The position numbers were made by a program, and so were the translations under genes. Of a DNA stretch of 64,000 nt, positions 2,450 through 29,728 are shown one piece after another. The stretch lies in IMG/VR virus record IMGVR_UViG_3300033066_001283, positions 1 to 64,000 of that record; one strand, given 5' to 3'. The notes beneath the pieces are model-generated. The model had not been told where the DNA came from. It ran no database searches and saw only the letters and a program-made list of their open reading frames with translations. Within the stretch, counting starts at the first letter, position 1. Each line of letters opens with the position of its first letter. Source of the DNA: a virus (lineage: Duplodnaviria > Caudoviricetes).

Positions 2450-2718
2450 AATCAAAAATAAAATTAGTAAAATCTGGAACACATATACTTTATATGTACA
2501 AAGCTGCAGTTCTTGCTTCAATGAGTCGAAGCTTTAGTTACTATTGGACTGTGCAATATTTAGGGCATAAAAAGGGAGAAATTACTTACCAACTTTATAA
2601 GGGCAAGTATCCATTTAGGAATTATTATAAGTATGGAAGGTTTACTAAGAATATGCCAGAAGATGGTAAAGAGCTTCTAGAGAAGGTTAAAAGAGAGGTA
2701 GAGCAATTATGTGGTTAA
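2446..2718 (+). CDS. hypothetical basic protein
   Basis: GTGA overlap, GAGG SD. Confidence 0.55.
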   Translation: MKSKIKLVKSGTHILYMYKAAVLASMSRSFSYYWTVQYLGHKKGEITYQLYKGKYPFRNYYKYGRFTKNMPEDGKELLEKVKREVEQLCG

Positions 2719-3008
2719 GTATTCATAAGAATGGTATAATTTATCAAAAACGAAATAGTAGGTTACAAACCTTTTGGCTATATAAAAGTTATCTACAAAC
2801 TAATTTCTATTGTGCATTTAAACATCCATGGGAAAATCCTGTTACCTTTAGTTCAGTTATTAAAAAGAAGAAAGTTAGAAATAAGATTGTTGCTAGTGGA
2901 AGATGGGTTAATTATCTAGATGAAGATTTAGAACTTATTGAAAGACGTAAGAAAGAACTAACTAGTTTGTTTGAAACTAAGTATGATAAGATAAGGACAT
3001 TTGTGTAA
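2709..3008 (+). CDS. hypothetical basic protein
   Basis: overlapping ORF in a co-directional array. Confidence 0.55.
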   Translation: MWLSIHKNGIIYQKRNSRLQTFWLYKSYLQTNFYCAFKHPWENPVTFSSVIKKKKVRNKIVASGRWVNYLDEDLELIERRKKELTSLFETKYDKIRTFV

Positions 3009-3337
3009 TGGGATATAATACATTTTTTAATTTGGATTGGGAGCCAAGAAATCAGATTATTGATAAAGCTATAGGAGACTATATAGAAGCTAATCAGGAT
3101 GGGTTATATGGTATTGACAGAGATGGATACGGTATAGATTGGTATAAGTGGTATGAAGAATATAGAAATCCAGAAATGATAGCTTTATCTAATGCTTTTC
3201 CTCACATATTATTTACTTTATCAGGAGAAGGGGAAGAAAGGGATGATAACTGGAAAATGTATATAATGAATGGAAAGTATCTTATGTCATACGGAAGAAT
3301 AATTTATGATGAAGTTAATTTGGATGATTTAATCTAA
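3008..3337 (+). CDS. conserved hypothetical phage protein
   Basis: MGYxT...KWY...M..LS..FP..LF.LSGEGEE..D.W..Y..NG pattern, which I recall from large-phage hypotheticals. Confidence 0.6.
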   Translation: MGYNTFFNLDWEPRNQIIDKAIGDYIEANQDGLYGIDRDGYGIDWYKWYEEYRNPEMIALSNAFPHILFTLSGEGEERDDNWKMYIMNGKYLMSYGRIIYDEVNLDDLI

Positions 3338-3567
3338 TGAAAATAGAAATCTTAGGCTCGCATTTAAATGCCAGTGTGAAATCATATTATATTTATACTT
3401 TTAGTGAAAGCTTTGCCTTTTGGATAAACTACGGTTGTTGTACCTATTTTCATAACTTAGAGTTTGGGCAAGTAATAAAGAATGGCGTATACGTAAAATC
3501 AAAGTTAACTAATAGGGAGAAGGAACATTGGCGAAACAATCTATTAGACCTTTGCAATTTAAAATAG
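3337..3567 (+). CDS. hypothetical protein
   Basis: TAATG coupling. Confidence 0.5.
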   Translation: MKIEILGSHLNASVKSYYIYTFSESFAFWINYGCCTYFHNLEFGQVIKNGVYVKSKLTNREKEHWRNNLLDLCNLK

Positions 3568-12389: not shown

Positions 12390-12599
12390 TTAGATTATAC
12401 CAGAGTCATCACTCTCTGGTTGTCCGTCCGTCACAGTAGAAGGATGTAAATTGAAGTTTTGAATTTTACTGATAAAGGATAATGTAAGTTGAATTAGATC
12501 GAGTAGTTCATTACTAGTTGAATTTATTTCAACTGTTTCTTCTACACCATTTCTAGTACAGTTTACAGTTAATCCTGAAGGGTTCTTATTAATAATCAT
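12390..12599 (-). CDS. hypothetical protein
   Basis: ORF overlapping the lysin stop. Confidence 0.5.
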   Translation of the reverse strand: MIINKNPSGLTVNCTRNGVEETVEINSTSNELLDLIQLTLSFISKIQNFNLHPSTVTDGQPESDDSGII

Positions 12600-13092
12600 T
12601 GAACCTTATAAAATGGATGTTAGAACCAGACTTCCAATATCTAATTTTCTTCAAGCCCAGCCACCCTTCTCGAGAACCATCTTCATTAGTATTTCCTTCC
12701 GAAGTTCTAAGCCAATAGATACCTAATGGTAGCTTCTTTACTTCGTTAATAGCAAAGATATGACCAGTAAGAGTTCTAGGATCTAGATAGTATCCTAAAT
12801 CTCCTCTTTTAGCTTCACTTGCATCAGTAAATAGTCTACCCTTTCTATTAAAGAAATCTCTCCAATTTCTAACTGCTGCTGCAGGAAATGGTAGATCAGT
12901 TTTCTTATAAAGTCCCGTAGCCATACACATAGCGTATAAAAATGCGCTACACCACGGATTTCCGGGGTCTACTCCAGCTAATTCGAGATATTTATCAACA
13001 TAAGGTCCACGATTACTACCTTTTGGAACCTCAACAGCTCTACCTTTTAGAATTTCGTCACTTACACGTAATAAAAATTGCTCAGATCGCAT
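12589..13092 (-). CDS. CHAP-domain cysteine peptidoglycan hydrolase (putative endolysin)
   Basis: E.PKGSNRGP.VD.YL, PWCSAF (catalytic Cys), GHI (catalytic His), EGNTN; AAGGAG SD inside the upstream gene. Confidence 0.8.
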   Translation of the reverse strand: MRSEQFLLRVSDEILKGRAVEVPKGSNRGPYVDKYLELAGVDPGNPWCSAFLYAMCMATGLYKKTDLPFPAAAVRNWRDFFNRKGRLFTDASEAKRGDLGYYLDPRTLTGHIFAINEVKKLPLGIYWLRTSEGNTNEDGSREGWLGLKKIRYWKSGSNIHFIRFNDY

Positions 13093-13849
13093 TAGATTGC
13101 TCCTTTTTCTTTTTCCACCATTCTAGTTTTGCTTTTCTCATTTTCTCTTTAGCTTCTTCTGTTTTAAGAATACCCTTTCTTTTTATAGACATTTTTAATT
13201 TAGCTTCATCAGAATGCTTACGACCTAACTGAGCTTTTCTATTTAGTTCTGCAAGTTCTTTACGTCTCTCATCAGAATAATTTGCAATGGTTGCAGCTCT
13301 TTTATCCTTTTGCTCTTGAGACGTAGGTTTGCCAAAATTAGGATTTAAAGGCCCAGATAATTTAAGTCTCATCTTTTCTTTGGCCTCCTCAGAGTGATGC
13401 CTACCGTAGAAAGGATTGTCTTTCCCATATTTCTTGTGGGTGGGAGGTTTATCAGCAACAAAGTTAGAATTTAAGTACAGATCTTTGTTACTTTCATCAA
13501 GTAACTTTTGCTCTATTAACAGAAGATTGTCACTATCTGGCACTTCACAAATTATAGAACAAGTAAAATCTCCTTCTCCATATTTATTCCAGGCACTTTG
13601 GAATAAAGGGGAATGATGAGCATTACGTCTTAATGCTTGAAAATGATCCATAAGTCTATTTCTTATTTGCCTAGATGATCCAATGTAATATCTATTCATA
13701 GAAGCACATTTAATAATATAACAGCCACTTAACTTATTAATTTCTCTGGGAATGGAGGTAGGTAAATACCAATCAGAATAGTCAGATTCTTTAGCTCTTC
13801 CAGATGTTATCTCATCTGATAATTTTAATAAAAATTGTTCTGATCTCAT
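13082..13849 (-). mobile_element. free-standing GIY-YIG homing endonuclease with NUMOD3 repeats, fused in frame to a copy of the lysin's first 21 codons
   Basis: GCYII...YYIGSS...R...H...L, KYGE..F, EQ, YLN; NPFYGRHHSEEAKEKMR and GRKHSDEAKLKMS repeats. Confidence 0.9.
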
Positions 13850-22640: not shown

Positions 22641-23548
22641 TATAAATAATCAAATGGGTAGTTATCTGGTAAATCGTATAAACTATACAATTCATCAATA
22701 GCTCCCTTACCCCCATTAGTTTTTAATCTAGTAGCATTAAGAGATAAAGATGCATCAGCAGGACAGTAACTCTTAACTAAATTACATGCTGATAAGTCAT
22801 AATAATCATCACCTACAAATATAAATTGTGAATAAGGTAGTTTGTATTTTTTAGCTAGTTCATTAATAATTAAGTTCTTATCTAATACACCATTTATAGG
22901 TTCAACTATTTTATAGTCCAAATTCCTAGATTTAGCCATTCCCACATTCCATTCATCCCCAGTAAGAAGAAAAACTTTGACACCTGCAGCTTTAAATCTT
23001 TTAATTGCAGTAAAATCTCTATCACAAAAGGATTTAGCTAACTTCTTATGATCTTTATCATAGAGTTTAGTTCCATCTGTTAAAACCCCATCCACATCCA
23101 AAAGTAAGACTCTAAATGGAAGACCTTTAGTATGTTTGGATACATAATCAGTGCAGATACCATAAATATCCTCAGGTACATATTTTTCATATTCTATATG
23201 AGTATAGATAGTATTTTTGATAGGGCCAGCAAGTTGGTGAGCCCAAGACACAAAAGTATTTTTCACAGGAACTATTCTTTCATTAGTCTGTTTAAATACT
23301 TGAGCTCCTAATAATTCTAATTGTATAAGTGCCTGATCATCTTTTGCATGGCACCAAATTCTCGAATCAATAAAGAAGTTTCGATCAACCTCATACAATG
23401 GTTCATCATGGCCAAGTAAGTACCCATTTTTATACCAAACATCTATCTCAACATCATAACCTAAGTTTAAAGCTTGAACAATATACTCAGGATGATTCTC
23501 TTTTTCAGAGGGTCCATTTATATTGCCTCTATGAGCTATATATTTCAT
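22640..23548 (-). CDS. GDPD/PLC-like phosphodiesterase fused to a KdsC-type HAD phosphatase
   Basis: IAHRGN, EN.PEY, DVEIDVW, LGHD, WCHAK, GICTD; LDVDGVLTDG, LTG, VGDDYYD, GGKGA. Confidence 0.85.
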   Translation of the reverse strand: MKYIAHRGNINGPSEKENHPEYIVQALNLGYDVEIDVWYKNGYLLGHDEPLYEVDRNFFIDSRIWCHAKDDQALIQLELLGAQVFKQTNERIVPVKNTFVSWAHQLAGPIKNTIYTHIEYEKYVPEDIYGICTDYVSKHTKGLPFRVLLLDVDGVLTDGTKLYDKDHKKLAKSFCDRDFTAIKRFKAAGVKVFLLTGDEWNVGMAKSRNLDYKIVEPINGVLDKNLIINELAKKYKLPYSQFIFVGDDYYDLSACNLVKSYCPADASLSLNATRLKTNGGKGAIDELYSLYDLPDNYPFDYL

Positions 23549-24227
23549 CTATGCTTACCTGGAATATACCATTCATATGTAATATGATTATACCATTGGT
23601 TACCCTTAATATACCCAAATTGTGACAACCATTTTTCAATCTTATCTACCTCATCTGGACCATATTGATCATTACCAACAGGAGAACTTTCTACAAAAAG
23701 AACTGGAAGATCACGTTCTATTGTTTTTTTAGAGCCTTTTAATGCTTCTAATTCAGGGCCTTCCATATCAAAAATAAGCATGGTAACATCTTTAAGGTCT
23801 TTAGAATCTAGAGATTTTAAAATAGTATCTTTACCTTTTTATTACCGCTAAAAGAAGTACATCCCGGCTCATGATTATGATACTGAACCATTGTAGATTT
23901 TACATCAGAACTCCATAATCCTTCATTATAACATTTAATAGTTGGATACTTTTCAGTATTTTTAACTAATAAAGGATAGGAAATAGGATGAGGTTCAAAA
24001 GCATGTATCTCTTTATGCTCTAAATAATTAGCACAAAATAATGGATGATTACCACAGTGTGCACCAGCATCAACAATAGTTTTATGTGTTGGGTATGTAT
24101 TACGTATATATTCTAGAAGTTCAAATTCATAAAAAGTTCCAGTACTAGAAATATGTTCAGCTATAGAAGATCCATCAGGAAATTCTAACTCTATATTTTT
24201 TTCTAGGTATTCGATATTAACAATCAT
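23545..24227 (-). pseudogene. FkbM-family methyltransferase split by a -1 frameshift (ORFs 23817..24227 and 23545..23781)
   Basis: VDAGAHCGNH and HAFEP in the first ORF; the -1 frame continues KGKDTILKSLDSKDLKDVTMLIFDMEGPELEALKG...PVLFVE; one extra A in the A5 run (23836-23840) restores the frame. Confidence 0.75.
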
Positions 24228-25262: not shown

Positions 25263-26170
25263 ATATTAATAATCTCTAGTATTTGATTGTAAAATACTTT
25301 TGGAGACCATTGATGCTGTAAGTCAAGCACGCTTTGATTTCCTAGAATTAATGCATCCTTTATAGACATAGAAGGGTAACAAGGAAGAAGAGAGTTAACA
25401 TGTTTAAATTGCTCAGAAGGAGTGAGAAGCAGAGGAGCTGAAGATGAAATACAATAGTCTACTGCACTACTTAATCCACGATTTGTATTATGATCATAAA
25501 ATAAACAGTTAATACTATTAGTACCTAGCCAATTAACGCACTCAGAATCGCTCATTCTATGAGTAGTAATATTCAATTGTGTTCCAGGCTTTGTTACTTT
25601 AGACCTGCAGTTATTAATAACTGCGTTTAGTGTTTCTGCACCGTCATTAAAATATGCTTGTGTGATATGGAGATTTATAATAGCTTCTTCAAATTCTGAA
25701 CAGACAGCTTCTACAAGTCTAGGAAAGCCTTTATTATGAAAAGCAAATCCAAACGAGCCTATCGTAGGTATAGAAGGAGGAGTATAGCTACCAAAAGGTA
25801 AAAGAGGTCTGATAGTTTTAACCCATCTAGAATCCTTACCAGTTAAGTCTAATGCATTATTAGCTACTAGCCATAAATCAAAGAAAGGATCAGCAACTCC
25901 ATTAACTGATTCCTGAGTTATTTCATGAAGAAGTCCAATAAATTTTCCTGACTTTTCTAGTGAATGTACCCATGGCATAAGACCAGGATAGTAATTAAAA
26001 ATTACTATATCTGAGGAGGAAATATATGCTTGTGCTTCTTCTTTAGAGTTTGCTTCTAGATATGAAAAGATTTCAGGATTAAAAGAATGTAGAATTTCAA
26101 ACATTCTTTTACCGTGTGCATGCACACCACAGACTTCAGAATGGTTATGATTAACTATTAGAACTTTCAT
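25259..26170 (-). CDS. GT-B fold (GT4-like) glycosyltransferase
   Basis: CGVH, IGSFGF...KGF..LV, LSSAVDY. Confidence 0.65.
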   Translation of the reverse strand: MKVLIVNHNHSEVCGVHAHGKRMFEILHSFNPEIFSYLEANSKEEAQAYISSSDIVIFNYYPGLMPWVHSLEKSGKFIGLLHEITQESVNGVADPFFDLWLVANNALDLTGKDSRWVKTIRPLLPFGSYTPPSIPTIGSFGFAFHNKGFPRLVEAVCSEFEEAIINLHITQAYFNDGAETLNAVINNCRSKVTKPGTQLNITTHRMSDSECVNWLGTNSINCLFYDHNTNRGLSSAVDYCISSSAPLLLTPSEQFKHVNSLLPCYPSMSIKDALILGNQSVLDLQHQWSPKVFYNQILEIINI

Positions 26171-27128
26171 TCTTTAGATCATACTCCACCATAATTTTAA
26201 TTAACTGATTAATGTTTGTTTCTGGTTTCCAGCCTAACACTTTCTCAGCCTTAGAATAGTCTGCTCTTAGTTCATGATGATCAAGAGGTCTAATAAATTG
26301 TGGATCTACCTCAACATATTTCTCCCAATCTAGGCCTACTTCTGAGAATGCTATATTAAGAAAATCTCTAAGTTTAGTACACACTCCTGTACCAATTACA
26401 AATTCATCAGGTTTATCATGCTGAAGAATTAAATGCATTGCCTTAACGTAATCCTTAGCATACCCCCAATCTCTACCAGTATCAAGATTTCCTAGAGATA
26501 ACTTATCTTGTAATCCTAGTTTAATTCTAGCAGCCGCTTTAGTTATTTTACGTGTTACAAAAGTATCAGGTCTACGTGGGCTCTCGTGGTTGAATAAAAT
26601 TCCTTGAGCTACAAACATATTAAAAGCATCTCTATGATGTTTACATTGATAATAGGCTGCAATTTTAGCAACTGAGTATGTTGATGTGGGAGCAAAAGGA
26701 GTATCTTCACCTTGAGGCGCAGGAGCCAAACCAAATATTTCAGAAGTAGTTGCTTGATAAATCTTAGATTCAGGGCAAACTAATCTGGCTGCCTCTAAAA
26801 TTCTAAGAAGTCCTATTGCATTAATATCCATAGTTTCAATTGGCATATCATAGCTAGTTTGAACATGACTTTGGGCTGCAAGACAATAGATTTCTGTAGG
26901 TTTTATCTGAGAAAATAACCCAATTAATTGTTCAGTTGAAGCAAGACTACCAGTATGAAGATGAAGCTTATCTTTAATATGTTCAATATTTTTAAGATTA
27001 TTACCGCCACTAACCTTTCTAACTAAACCATGAACTTCATATCCTAGATCTAATAAATACTCAGCAAGATATGATCCATCTTGTCCAGTGACACCAGTAA
27101 TAAATGCTTTCTTCTGTTTATCTACCAT
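26151..27128 (-). CDS. gmd: GDP-mannose 4,6-dehydratase
   Basis: ITGVTGQDGSYLAE, LAAQSHV, YQATTSE, YSVAK, LFNHESPRR..FVTRKIT, LGNLD..RDWG. Confidence 0.96.
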   Translation of the reverse strand: MVDKQKKAFITGVTGQDGSYLAEYLLDLGYEVHGLVRKVSGGNNLKNIEHIKDKLHLHTGSLASTEQLIGLFSQIKPTEIYCLAAQSHVQTSYDMPIETMDINAIGLLRILEAARLVCPESKIYQATTSEIFGLAPAPQGEDTPFAPTSTYSVAKIAAYYQCKHHRDAFNMFVAQGILFNHESPRRPDTFVTRKITKAAARIKLGLQDKLSLGNLDTGRDWGYAKDYVKAMHLILQHDKPDEFVIGTGVCTKLRDFLNIAFSEVGLDWEKYVEVDPQFIRPLDHHELRADYSKAEKVLGWKPETNINQLIKIMVEYDLKNESSNS

Positions 27129-27268
27129 TCATTATTTCCTCTTTTCTCTGCTAGCAAAGCTCCCATTCCACCAAGCATAGCATCTGGGTCTTTGAGAAGC
27201 CCTAAAGAACCATTAACTATATGCTGTACGATAGATTTACCAACTAAAGCATGCTTAGAGTTAATCAT
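27122..27268 (-). pseudogene. 48-codon orphan duplicate of the C-terminus of glycosyltransferase 27985..28653
   Basis: MINSKHALVGKSIVQHIVNGSLGLLKDPDAMLGGMGALLAEKRGNNEW*; 27/34 aa identical to the GT segment NSRHALVGKSVVQHLTNGSLGLVKDPDQMLAGMG; not in the ORF track. Confidence 0.85.
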
Positions 27269-27998
27269 ATTTAGGTGGAGTGTACACTCCACTCCTTTTC
27301 AAAGAATTTACAATTGTTTTAGATACAACATTATATCTTTCAGCAAGTTCAAGAGGAGAGTACCCCTGCAAAAATAATTCTTTTATCACAGAGTCTTCGG
27401 ACTTTATTTTAGATACTTTTCCCGATTTAGATCTAGATAATCTAAGATTATATCCACCAGTTCTATTTAAAGAATTTCTGATTGATGTGTAACTCACTTT
27501 GAATTTTTCACATAAAGCTTTAATTTGTACTCCTGTATTGTATAAACAACGAACTATATCATCATCTTCAGCCGTAAGTTTACTTCTAGAAAGCTTTTGA
27601 TCCAGTGTCATGGGAATTCCTTTATTACTTGATGGAATTCCTAGCTTTGCTCTACTGCACTTTTTCCTATGTGAGTCAGAATTTTTACACCCTTGTCTAG
27701 ATGCTCTAGCCTCAGTACAAATATTCATAGATAAGATGTCATTTTTATACTCTTGTAATAATTCATACTCAATCTGAATTACTTCTGATTCGTTGCAGTA
27801 CTTAAGTATTTCAAAAACGAAAGACTCTTCCCCATATTTATTATAGCATCTTTGCATATGGAAATTGAAATGTCTATTACATCTAAGACTGCGTAAGTGC
27901 TCATGAAATCTGTTACTAATATTTCTAGATTGGCCAATATAGAACCTATCATTTTTAGTACATGTAATTTTGTACACTCCACAATTATTTTGTATCAT
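27261..27998 (-). mobile_element. free-standing GIY-YIG homing endonuclease (NUMOD3-like plus tandem HTH-like repeats)
   Basis: GVYKI...FYIGQS..I..R...H...L, KYGEESF.F; two LY/LF..G.....L...F/Y.VS...I.NSL.R repeats. Confidence 0.9.
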
Positions 27999-28653
27999 AT
28001 TCCTCTCTTACAGTTCTTAATACTTCACCCATTCCCGCTAACATTTGATCTGGATCTTTTACTAATCCTAAGGACCCATTAGTTAGATGTTGAACAACTG
28101 ATTTTCCAACTAGAGCGTGTCTAGAGTTAACACGCTTAAGACAATCTTGCATATGATCATCCGCACACCAGAACAAGAAGCGTTCATCTAATGGTAGTAT
28201 TTTATTTAAACTCTCTCTTTTAAATACTAAATTCCAGCCTGTAAATAAACTTCCTGTTCCGTACCCTTCATGGACCTGATTAGAATCAAGATTAACATGT
28301 TGAAACCAACCTGGATTATATGGTGAAGCAGAATCTAAGTTATGTTCCTGCATTGCCTTGTATATTTCTGTAAACCAATGCTTGTGGAATATTACATCAT
28401 TATTACTGATAATCAAATATGGAGTATCTGAGTACTTAAAGCCAATATTTAAGAAGCGATTATAATTAAACTCTTCATTGGGGATAATGATCTTGGCTGG
28501 ATACTTATGTGAAGTATGGGGATTAGTTTCTACTACTATTGGATTAAACTTGAATTCTGTTTCTGAAGCAAGCAATGTATTAATAGCTTGCATAGTCAAG
28601 TTATAATAATGTTCATTAGCAGTATTAGCTAGAAATATGCAATCTACTTTCAT
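27985..28653 (-). CDS. GT2-family glycosyltransferase (target of the GIY-YIG insertion)
   Basis: IVVETN, FNYNRFLNIG, ISNNDVIF, LDERFLFWCADD. Confidence 0.85.
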   Translation of the reverse strand: MKVDCIFLANTANEHYYNLTMQAINTLLASETEFKFNPIVVETNPHTSHKYPAKIIIPNEEFNYNRFLNIGFKYSDTPYLIISNNDVIFHKHWFTEIYKAMQEHNLDSASPYNPGWFQHVNLDSNQVHEGYGTGSLFTGWNLVFKRESLNKILPLDERFLFWCADDHMQDCLKRVNSRHALVGKSVVQHLTNGSLGLVKDPDQMLAGMGEVLRTVREEYDTK

Positions 28654-28979
28654 GGAATAGGAACTGTGTAAGTGCTAGAAGTATTACTAGTAGTATACGT
28701 AATACTTGTACCATAATAATTATAGTATGGTGAAGCAGTGGTGCTTATATTGATTGGAGAATAAGGCTGGTATTGAATTCTATTAAATGCGGTCATTGGA
28801 ATAACAAAATTCTTCTTTTGCTTAAAATCAATTCTCACTTCTTCACTTAAATAGAGCTTCTTGTGAAGTGTATACATTTCACAATAGTAAGTATAATTCT
28901 CAGTATCTAAGAAAATATACTTATAGGGCATAGTACCAAACTTAGGGTTGATAGGTGTTAAAAATTTAGGTAGTTTCAT
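28650..28979 (-). CDS. hypothetical protein
   Basis: ATGA-coupled ORF. Confidence 0.5.
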   Translation of the reverse strand: MKLPKFLTPINPKFGTMPYKYIFLDTENYTYYCEMYTLHKKLYLSEEVRIDFKQKKNFVIPMTAFNRIQYQPYSPINISTTASPYYNYYGTSITYTTSNTSSTYTVPIP

Positions 28980-29728
28980 AGTTCTTGATAAATTGGGTTG
29001 TTTCTATTAACTACCCTTTCATTCTCCTTAATATAACCAGCAACATCTTCTCCGTGTATAGAACTGATAAATTCATTTATGGGATTTAGTGGAGGATTAG
29101 TTTTCTTCCAGTTATAATCTATGTCTATGGTGTAGATATATTTCTCAACCTCAATTGGTGCAAGATATTTACCATTAGGTGTTAATCCTGCTGCATGTGC
29201 CCTCATAGAGTATTCAGCATGTTCAAAACCATATGTGCCAAACTCTTTATTATATCCTCCAATTGTATCCACCACTCTTTTAGAGAAGAATAGGCATACT
29301 CCCATACAATTATCAAACATCTTAATTCCAAGGGAACTATTTCTAGCAAGTTCATGAAGATCACCAATAACTGTTAAATACATTAGATGTTCATTCTTAC
29401 TCTTTCTAGCTGTTTGAATAAATAAATTTTCCCAACCTTTTCTCATTGGAAAAGCATCATCATCAAATGAGAAGATATAATCACAATCTTTAAGATGCTC
29501 TAAGCAAACATTCTTATTCTTAGCTATACCTAATCTTGAATCAGATTTAAAGTAACTATCTTCTAGACCATACTTCTGTATAACTGGTAGATTGTTCTTA
29601 TCTTCATCAGAGTTATCATCAGCAATACAATACTTAATATCATAACTAGAGTATGTCTTAAAATGGTTTAATGCCATATCTAAAACATCTGGTCTATTTC
29701 TAGTTGTTATTCCTACTCCTATCTTCAT
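28976..29728 (-). CDS. GT2-family glycosyltransferase
   Basis: GITTRNRP, ADDNS, GIAKNKN, FDDD, GGY...FG.YGFEH. Confidence 0.85.
   Translation of the reverse strand: MKIGVGITTRNRPDVLDMALNHFKTYSSYDIKYCIADDNSDEDKNNLPVIQKYGLEDSYFKSDSRLGIAKNKNVCLEHLKDCDYIFSFDDDAFPMRKGWENLFIQTARKSKNEHLMYLTVIGDLHELARNSSLGIKMFDNCMGVCLFFSKRVVDTIGGYNKEFGTYGFEHAEYSMRAHAAGLTPNGKYLAPIEVEKYIYTIDIDYNWKKTNPPLNPINEFISSIHGEDVAGYIKENERVVNRNNPIYQEL

Follow-up and report, generated by a model that had tools for sequence, protein, structure and literature searches.

How does a free-standing homing endonuclease gene come to lie in the conserved end of a phage gene while that gene stays complete, and which of the two gene ends around it belongs to the resident genome? 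The question is raised by a locus in the first 64 kb (the window hereafter) of the 150-kb IMG/VR phage record IMGVR_UViG_3300033066_001283, where the 3′ end of a family 2 glycosyltransferase (GT) gene recurs behind a GIY-YIG homing endonuclease gene (HEG) as a separate 48-codon open reading frame (ORF), here called the orphan, immediately ahead of gmd. Sequence comparison points to a reading to which we assign a probability of about 0.65, namely that the HEG, the orphan and the 5′ end of gmd were imported together by homing with co-conversion, and that the orphan is the displaced GT tail of an earlier host. The parts of the locus, given with the evidence that identifies them, are as follows.

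27985-28653, minus strand: full-length GT2 (GT-A fold) glycosyltransferase gene, 222 aa (Pfam PF00535, AlphaFold, Foldseek).
28000-28130, minus strand: upstream repeat copy (TTAACTCTA...GAGGAA), the working, resident-like 3′ end of the GT gene (core identity to relatives, collinearity with the GT body).
27261-27998, minus strand: free-standing GIY-YIG homing endonuclease gene, 245 aa (Pfam PF01541, I-TevI domain, phrog_314).
ATG at 27268 to TAG at 27122, minus strand: 48-codon orphan ORF, which repeats the GT 3′ end in diverged form (repeat comparison, BLASTP).
27136-27264, minus strand: downstream repeat copy (TTAACTCTA...GAGGAA), 2 nt shorter than the upstream copy (repeat alignment).
27025-27264, minus strand: putative imported (co-converted) patch, spanning the orphan and running some 100 nt into gmd (window-specific substitution counts).
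26151-27128, minus strand: gmd (GDP-mannose 4,6-dehydratase), 325 aa (Pfam PF16363, E 1e-109).

Within 3.8 kb there is one direct repeat of 103 nt, at 27162-27264 and 28028-28130 with 73% identity, all other repeats being of 20 nt or less. Both copies start with TTAACTCTA and end with GAGGAA, the upstream one running from 28130 to 28000 and the downstream one from 27264 to 27136, and in all the last ~131 nt of the GT gene recur behind the HEG. In the 34-codon core the DNA is 71.6% identical and the protein agrees at 27 of 34 residues, the codon differences being 13 synonymous and 7 non-synonymous; the longest identical run between the two copies is 9 nt, and BLASTP aligns the orphan with the GT at an E value of 7e-21. 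The orphan is an intact ORF that shares bases with both neighbours, at its ATG with the HEG stop (TATGATTAA) and at its TAG with the gmd ATG (ATGGTAG). An earlier note on this DNA had described the repeat behind the endonuclease, with its shared residues, its synonymous codon changes and its common start, as well as the two overlaps, and all of these coordinates and features proved to be as described. Excision of the element by recombination between the copies, a further suggestion of that note, is unlikely because no identical run exceeds 9 nt.

The state of the locus without the endonuclease can be read from three independent relatives (L006, L014/L015 and L007), all of them metagenome contigs. 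L014/L015, the nearest, was reached via a member of the gmd cluster of the window and shows 91% nucleotide identity on both sides of the site; in L014 a 222-aa GT overlaps gmd (ATGA), and the HEG is absent from both contigs. L006, a Logan contig carrying protein P0001 (GT 97% identical) and 87% identical to the window in nucleotide sequence, likewise has a 222-aa GT overlapping gmd by ATGA and no endonuclease, and L007, which carries P0002 and no HEG, has its GT stop 3 nt ahead of gmd. GT relatives from IMG/VR (L001-L005) were rejected for this comparison, being at most 52% identical and lying in a different gene context. Each empty site is collinear with both copies of the window, where the HEG and a 134-nt duplication account for 866 additional nt. 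The locus shows presence/absence polymorphism at a single place together with a flanking co-conversion patch, as characterizes an HEG.

Directly before gmd, the GT tail reads ...EVLRIAREEDKNL in L006 and ...EVLRIAREEDKSL in L014, both of the upstream type (...EVLRIAREED..), and that of L007 is of a third, very different type; the orphan-type tail ...ALLAEKRGNNEW occurs in none of these empty sites. The earlier note had predicted an empty allele ending ...ALLAEKRGNNEW before gmd and had itself named empty sites with the upstream version as the contrary outcome, which is the one found in L006 and L014/L015. The GT body of the window is 92-100% identical to L014, and the upstream GT differs from the L006 and L014 tails in its last four codons only (YDTK vs DKNL or DKSL), YDTK being encoded by the HEG 5′ end. 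The upstream GT is complete and resident-like, with only these four codons overwritten by the start of the HEG. The view that the endonuclease supplies the GT with a new C-terminus shrinks to that overwriting, whereas the placement proposed with it holds, a GIY-YIG gene inserted at the GT/gmd junction, absent in relatives and lying between two diverged copies. An origin of the empty sites by deletion between the repeats was also rejected, as it should leave the GT with the orphan-type tail and gmd with the 5′ end of the window, neither of which is seen.

Two further observations concern variation among the tail alleles. Up to 28216, L007 and the window show 94.7% identity; the last ~90 GT codons of L007 are then a very different allele (overall GT identity 73%), and in gmd the identity is back at 90%. 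On this comparison the C-terminal third of the GT appears to be a recombination hot spot even without an HEG. Furthermore, a 14-nt block, CATATAGTTAATGG (H-I-V-N-G), is shared by L014 (~2860-2875) and the orphan (~27210-27225) and is found neither in the upstream copy nor in L006, a distribution that may point to patchy gene conversion among the tail alleles of the population.

Which of the two copies is foreign can be judged from identity and from window-specific substitutions, defined as positions at which the window departs from a state common to L014 and L006, and counted per 60 nt. Over the 105 nt of the core, identity to L014 and L006 is 85.7% and 84.8% for the upstream copy and 76.2% in both cases for the orphan, which is 71.4% identical to the upstream copy. 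Window-specific changes number 0-4 per 60 nt in the first 480 nt of the GT and 3, 5 and 4 in its last 177 nt; over the orphan and ~100 nt into gmd the counts rise to 6, 20, 17 and 8, and in the remaining gmd they are mostly 1-3. The patch formed by the orphan and the gmd 5′ end differs in this way at 51/243 positions and the rest of gmd at 33/874 (odds ratio 6.8, p 7e-16). Although L014, L006 and L007 are mutually 12-15% different, they have one common state in the first ~20 gmd codons, from which the window alone deviates, and the block from the orphan into the gmd 5′ end is therefore derived in the window lineage. Since the patch is bounded and continues ~100 nt into gmd, the orphan was most probably imported and is not ancestral to the window lineage, and the HEG, the orphan and the gmd 5′ end probably came together from a diverged donor.

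The kind of change in the patch is equally informative. Past the first six codons, the substitutions in the gmd part are all synonymous, and codons 7-35 differ from L014 by 9 synonymous and 0 non-synonymous changes, including a TCA/AGC serine switch at which L014, L006 and L007 agree against the window; to judge from the codons, this is the signature of imported, long-diverged but functional sequence and not of decay. In the orphan, 5 of 14 specific nucleotide changes are non-synonymous, against 72% expected (binomial p 0.005), so that its divergence arose inside a working gene. The overlap of the orphan tail with the gmd start accordingly reads, at the level of sequence, as a genuine GT/gmd junction, that of another lineage. 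These patterns leave an in-situ tandem duplication at HEG insertion, followed by decay of the redundant copy, very improbable: the direct-repeat geometry does resemble a long target-site duplication, but the copies are 28% different, mostly at synonymous positions, while the GT body has stayed so close to L014, and the divergence runs into the functional gmd 5′ end, where codons 7-35 are without amino-acid change, a pattern not expected from neutral decay.

The same evidence bears on the opposite polarity, proposed in the earlier note and known from Allomyces, in which a foreign GT 3′ end together with the HEG would have been inserted at TTAACTCTA, leaving the upstream copy foreign and the orphan as the native, ancestral tail kept open for coupling to gmd. 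Such polarity is documented in fungal mitochondria (PMC3630166), and the orphan is physically continuous with gmd through a normal stop/start overlap; moreover, the upstream copy has a modest window-specific excess and carries, just after TTAACTCTA, two unique synonymous changes (CAC, CTA) at positions that are constant in the other four of the five compared sequences. However, the orphan is the outlier, its core identity to the nearest relatives (76%) being some 10 points below that of the upstream copy (85-86%), it lies inside a bounded foreign patch that reaches gmd and is derived in the window lineage, as judged from the common state of L014, L006 and L007, and the empty sites have upstream-type tails or the third type. 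A native orphan is for these reasons clearly unlikely.

The import of the HEG with a travelling GT tail can be pictured as a series of steps. In an earlier host, the endonuclease would have entered the GT gene just before the conserved His179/His189 motif, and the GT of that host would have survived through a replacement gene end upstream of the HEG, the origin route being presumably that documented for fungal mitochondrial mobile ORFs. Illegitimate one-sided break repair at microhomology, which has been documented in T4 (PMC2988022), could create such a junction. The whole unit would then have homed into an L014-like phage, carrying the old displaced tail along, by copying from the diverged donor phage in double-strand-break repair, crossing over on the left within the GT 3′ end and on the right in gmd near 27025-27060. 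At the new site the orphan may provide homology right beside the HEG, and it would bring the donor GT-stop/gmd-start junction with GAGGAA 7 nt before the gmd ATG, thereby keeping the start context of gmd. The divergence of the copies, with identical runs of at most 9 nt, might shield the cassette from deletion. From the sequence, the cleavage site in empty alleles is predicted near TTAACTCTA/CATGC.TTAG, and the CAC and CTA changes of the upstream copy are candidate immunity changes, offered as a prediction.

Several points weigh against this reading. The last 177 nt of the GT also have a modest window-specific excess (odds ratio 3.1, p 0.008), and part of the upstream copy may be donor-derived too. 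Neither a donor nor a full-length GT with the orphan-type tail was found by a word-indexed search for longer proteins or by HMMER against 1.84 billion representatives, and neither the orphan peptides nor a degenerate DNA pattern encoding the conserved motif NS(K/R)HALVGKS brought up either of them in IMG/VR and JGI metagenomes, so that the earlier-host step is one that we infer. The empty sites are a small sample of three, and all HEG-bearing contigs are the same phage (99.9-100% identical), L011-L013 showing zero differences in the cassette. As to wider relatives, the closest to the HEG has 53% identity over a third of the protein, with none in IMG/VR and at most 29% in cultured phages; megablast with the region found no match among GenBank phages, where the GT protein has only 27-35% matches, in actinophages.

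Does the orphan itself do anything at present? It might be a translated coupling ORF that passes ribosomes from the HEG to gmd, or encode a small protein, for instance a free C-terminal module of the GT. In keeping with this, the ORF is intact and overlaps both neighbours, its in-frame ATG lying at the HEG stop and its stop codon TAG at the start of gmd. Most orphan-specific changes are synonymous, and the GT/gmd overlap (ATGA) in L006 and L014 makes coupling the native state. On the other hand, the synonymous bias is equally expected if the divergence is older than the displacement, no Shine-Dalgarno sequence precedes the orphan ATG, and gmd has its own GAGGAA 7 nt upstream. The tail shows net 2-nt and 1-nt length changes against the other alleles and a different reading frame across GAGGAA. 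The 48-codon ORF has no independent homologue, the HMMER search of 1.84 billion representatives returning only the orphan itself, and its peptides had no match in IMG/VR and JGI metagenome contigs. The RNA fold of the HEG-end/orphan/gmd-start segment is not distinctive (z -1.0), the promoter signal is not above chance, promoter and terminator scans together being at or below it, and the HEG-bearing contigs again represent one phage only. Present selection on the ORF seems to us unlikely, with selection for translational coupling being its possible form.

The layout has a close counterpart in the gene hybrids produced by mobile ORFs (mORFs) in fungal mitochondria, namely atp6 of Allomyces macrogynus and atp6, atp9, cox2 and nad3 of Glomus sp. 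(PMC3630166). As in the window, two diverged 3′ ends of the host gene enclose an endonuclease ORF, of the GIY-YIG kind in Glomus atp9, and the upstream copy completes the gene in frame; of the two copies one is foreign, and their DNA identity is about 63-72%, most differences being synonymous (PMC3630166). In the fungal hybrids, the downstream copy is native and the upstream copy foreign, whereas in the window it is the upstream copy that resembles the relatives (85-86% identity) and the downstream copy (76%) that is imported together with the start of the next gene. The hosts also differ, since the window offers a phage glycan operon with overlapping genes, and the orphan is an intact ORF with start and stop overlaps whereas the fungal downstream copy is an untranscribed pseudogene. 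We therefore describe the cassette, with its two diverged direct copies flanking an HEG and the upstream one completing the GT, as a phage instance of the known fungal-type layout, with the twist that the displaced tail is a travelling copy and not the native one. In the literature searched we found this fungal precedent and no published phage case of an HEG with a spare gene end.

Insertion of an HEG can also leave a gene in pieces, as in Aeromonas phage Aeh1, where nrdA is split by mobE into two required polypeptides. There too the HEG lies within a phage coding region and involves no intron or intein, but nrdA is divided, whereas the window GT is full length and its downstream piece redundant; instead of two incomplete ORFs, the window has an upstream GT of 222 aa that keeps its His179/His189 strand. 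The free-standing Seg and Mob HEGs of T4, known for intronless homing, co-conversion and marker exclusion, resemble the window HEG in several ways: they include GIY-YIG enzymes, are intergenic with a start overlapping the upstream ORF, are present or absent among close relatives, and have co-converted flanks with a sharp boundary (PMC2988022). The T4 enzymes carry C-terminal DNA-binding modules, for which the window HEG gives weak matches. T4 HEG starts overlap the upstream gene by 11-24 nt, segC, segF, mobA and mobC being in that range, and the 14-nt overlap of the window HEG falls within it (PMC2988022). Unlike the window HEG, those of T4 lie between intact genes without spare gene ends, and the T4 review mentions no flanking gene-end duplication (PMC2988022).

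The identities of the genes are well grounded. All on the minus strand and tightly packed, they follow in the order of a GT2 gene (28976-29728), a 109-aa ORF, the GT2 gene at 27985-28653, the GIY-YIG gene, the 48-codon ORF and gmd. The GT under study scores 27.2 bits against PF00535 (Pfam cut-off 23.3), which places it in family 2, and equals in length the gene of HEG-free relatives. Its AlphaFold model is a confident GT-A fold (pLDDT 91.9), for which Foldseek returns the GT-A enzymes RmlT, ppGalNAc-Ts, TarP and SpsA at E about 1e-8, and since the modelled fold is confident the GT tail is presumably needed for function. The strand with the conserved His179 and the invariant His189 is present in the upstream copy, and the repeat begins 3 codons upstream of it, a typical target choice for an HEG. 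The endonuclease, intact and I-TevI-like, matches PF01541 with 40.1 bits (cut-off 22.6, E 4.5e-10), indicating a GIY-YIG catalytic domain; the I-TevI catalytic domain (1mk0/1ln0) aligns with residues 6-93, including both the GIY and the YIG motif (1mk0, E 8.5e-7), and among the PHROG homing-endonuclease families phrog_314 covers residues 2-196 (E 5e-25). Residues 139-236 match several helix-turn-helix families weakly, all under the Pfam cut-offs, as well as PDB 2lvs (E 5.5e-4). The HEG ATG lies 1 nt behind the upstream GAGGAA, which, by its position, could serve as the ribosome-binding site of the HEG. At both ends of the HEG there is an exact 12-nt repeat, GTGGAGTGTACA, at 27971-27982 (codons CGVY) and 27281-27292 (codons SGVY), and its 3′ copy lies inside a perfect 14-nt palindrome, GGAGTGTACACTCC.

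Other endonuclease genes of this phage group deserve mention. A second GIY-YIG gene of the window, HEG2 (255 aa, 13082-13849, minus strand), opens with 21 codons that duplicate, in diverged form (16/21 residues), the beginning of a CHAP lysin gene. The lysin gene follows HEG2 at 12589-13092 on the minus strand, and its AAGGAG ribosome-binding site lies inside the HEG2 3′ end. This arrangement (12589-13849) is the mirror image of the GT cassette; no relatives of it were found in IMG/VR, and its protein clusters contain the same phage only. A third GIY-YIG gene (336 aa), outside the window, is associated with two 94-nt repeats, 93% identical and with a CTGATGAG core, at L010 2265-2358 and 3024-3117 (G000 about 122.9 and 123.6 kb), with one sub-threshold Hammerhead type II match (27.7 bits vs a gathering score of 37). 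L006 carries at 2450-3493 (window ~31160) a 1043-nt insertion whose 347-aa product contains repeated CxCGC motifs and weakly matches HNH_3; the insertion sits exactly between a 141-aa and a 144-aa gene, another endonuclease presence/absence polymorphism in the group. Elsewhere in the window, one A is missing at 23841 in comparison with L011 and L012, the same phage, splitting a 227-aa FkbM-type methyltransferase (PF05050) into ORFs of 136 aa and 78 aa (genes 23545-23781 and 23817-24227, minus strand), either by a real frameshift or by an assembly error.

What the locus teaches follows from its empty-site relatives, which show how a free-standing HEG can occupy the conserved end of a phage gene when neither intron nor intein is present: it brings a spare end with it. 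Small orphan ORFs behind phage endonuclease genes can be relics of gene ends and are not to be annotated as new genes, and such cassettes mark sharp mosaic boundaries, in this case within gmd. The polarity is opposite to that of the fungal cases and the displaced tail can travel from host to host with the element; therefore, what is native and what is foreign cannot be read from position alone. The presence of two mirror-image cassettes in one genome suggests that the strategy is common in large environmental phages. A more general and rather doubtful extension would hold that the arrangement of gene end, HEG and second gene end is a self-contained, splice-free mobile unit general in phages, whose recoded upstream end keeps the host gene working and cleavage-immune, and whose downstream end both supplies a homology arm at the cut site and, kept open and translated, couples the next gene so that its expression is restored. 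If true, free-standing endonucleases could colonise conserved coding sequence without an intron or intein.

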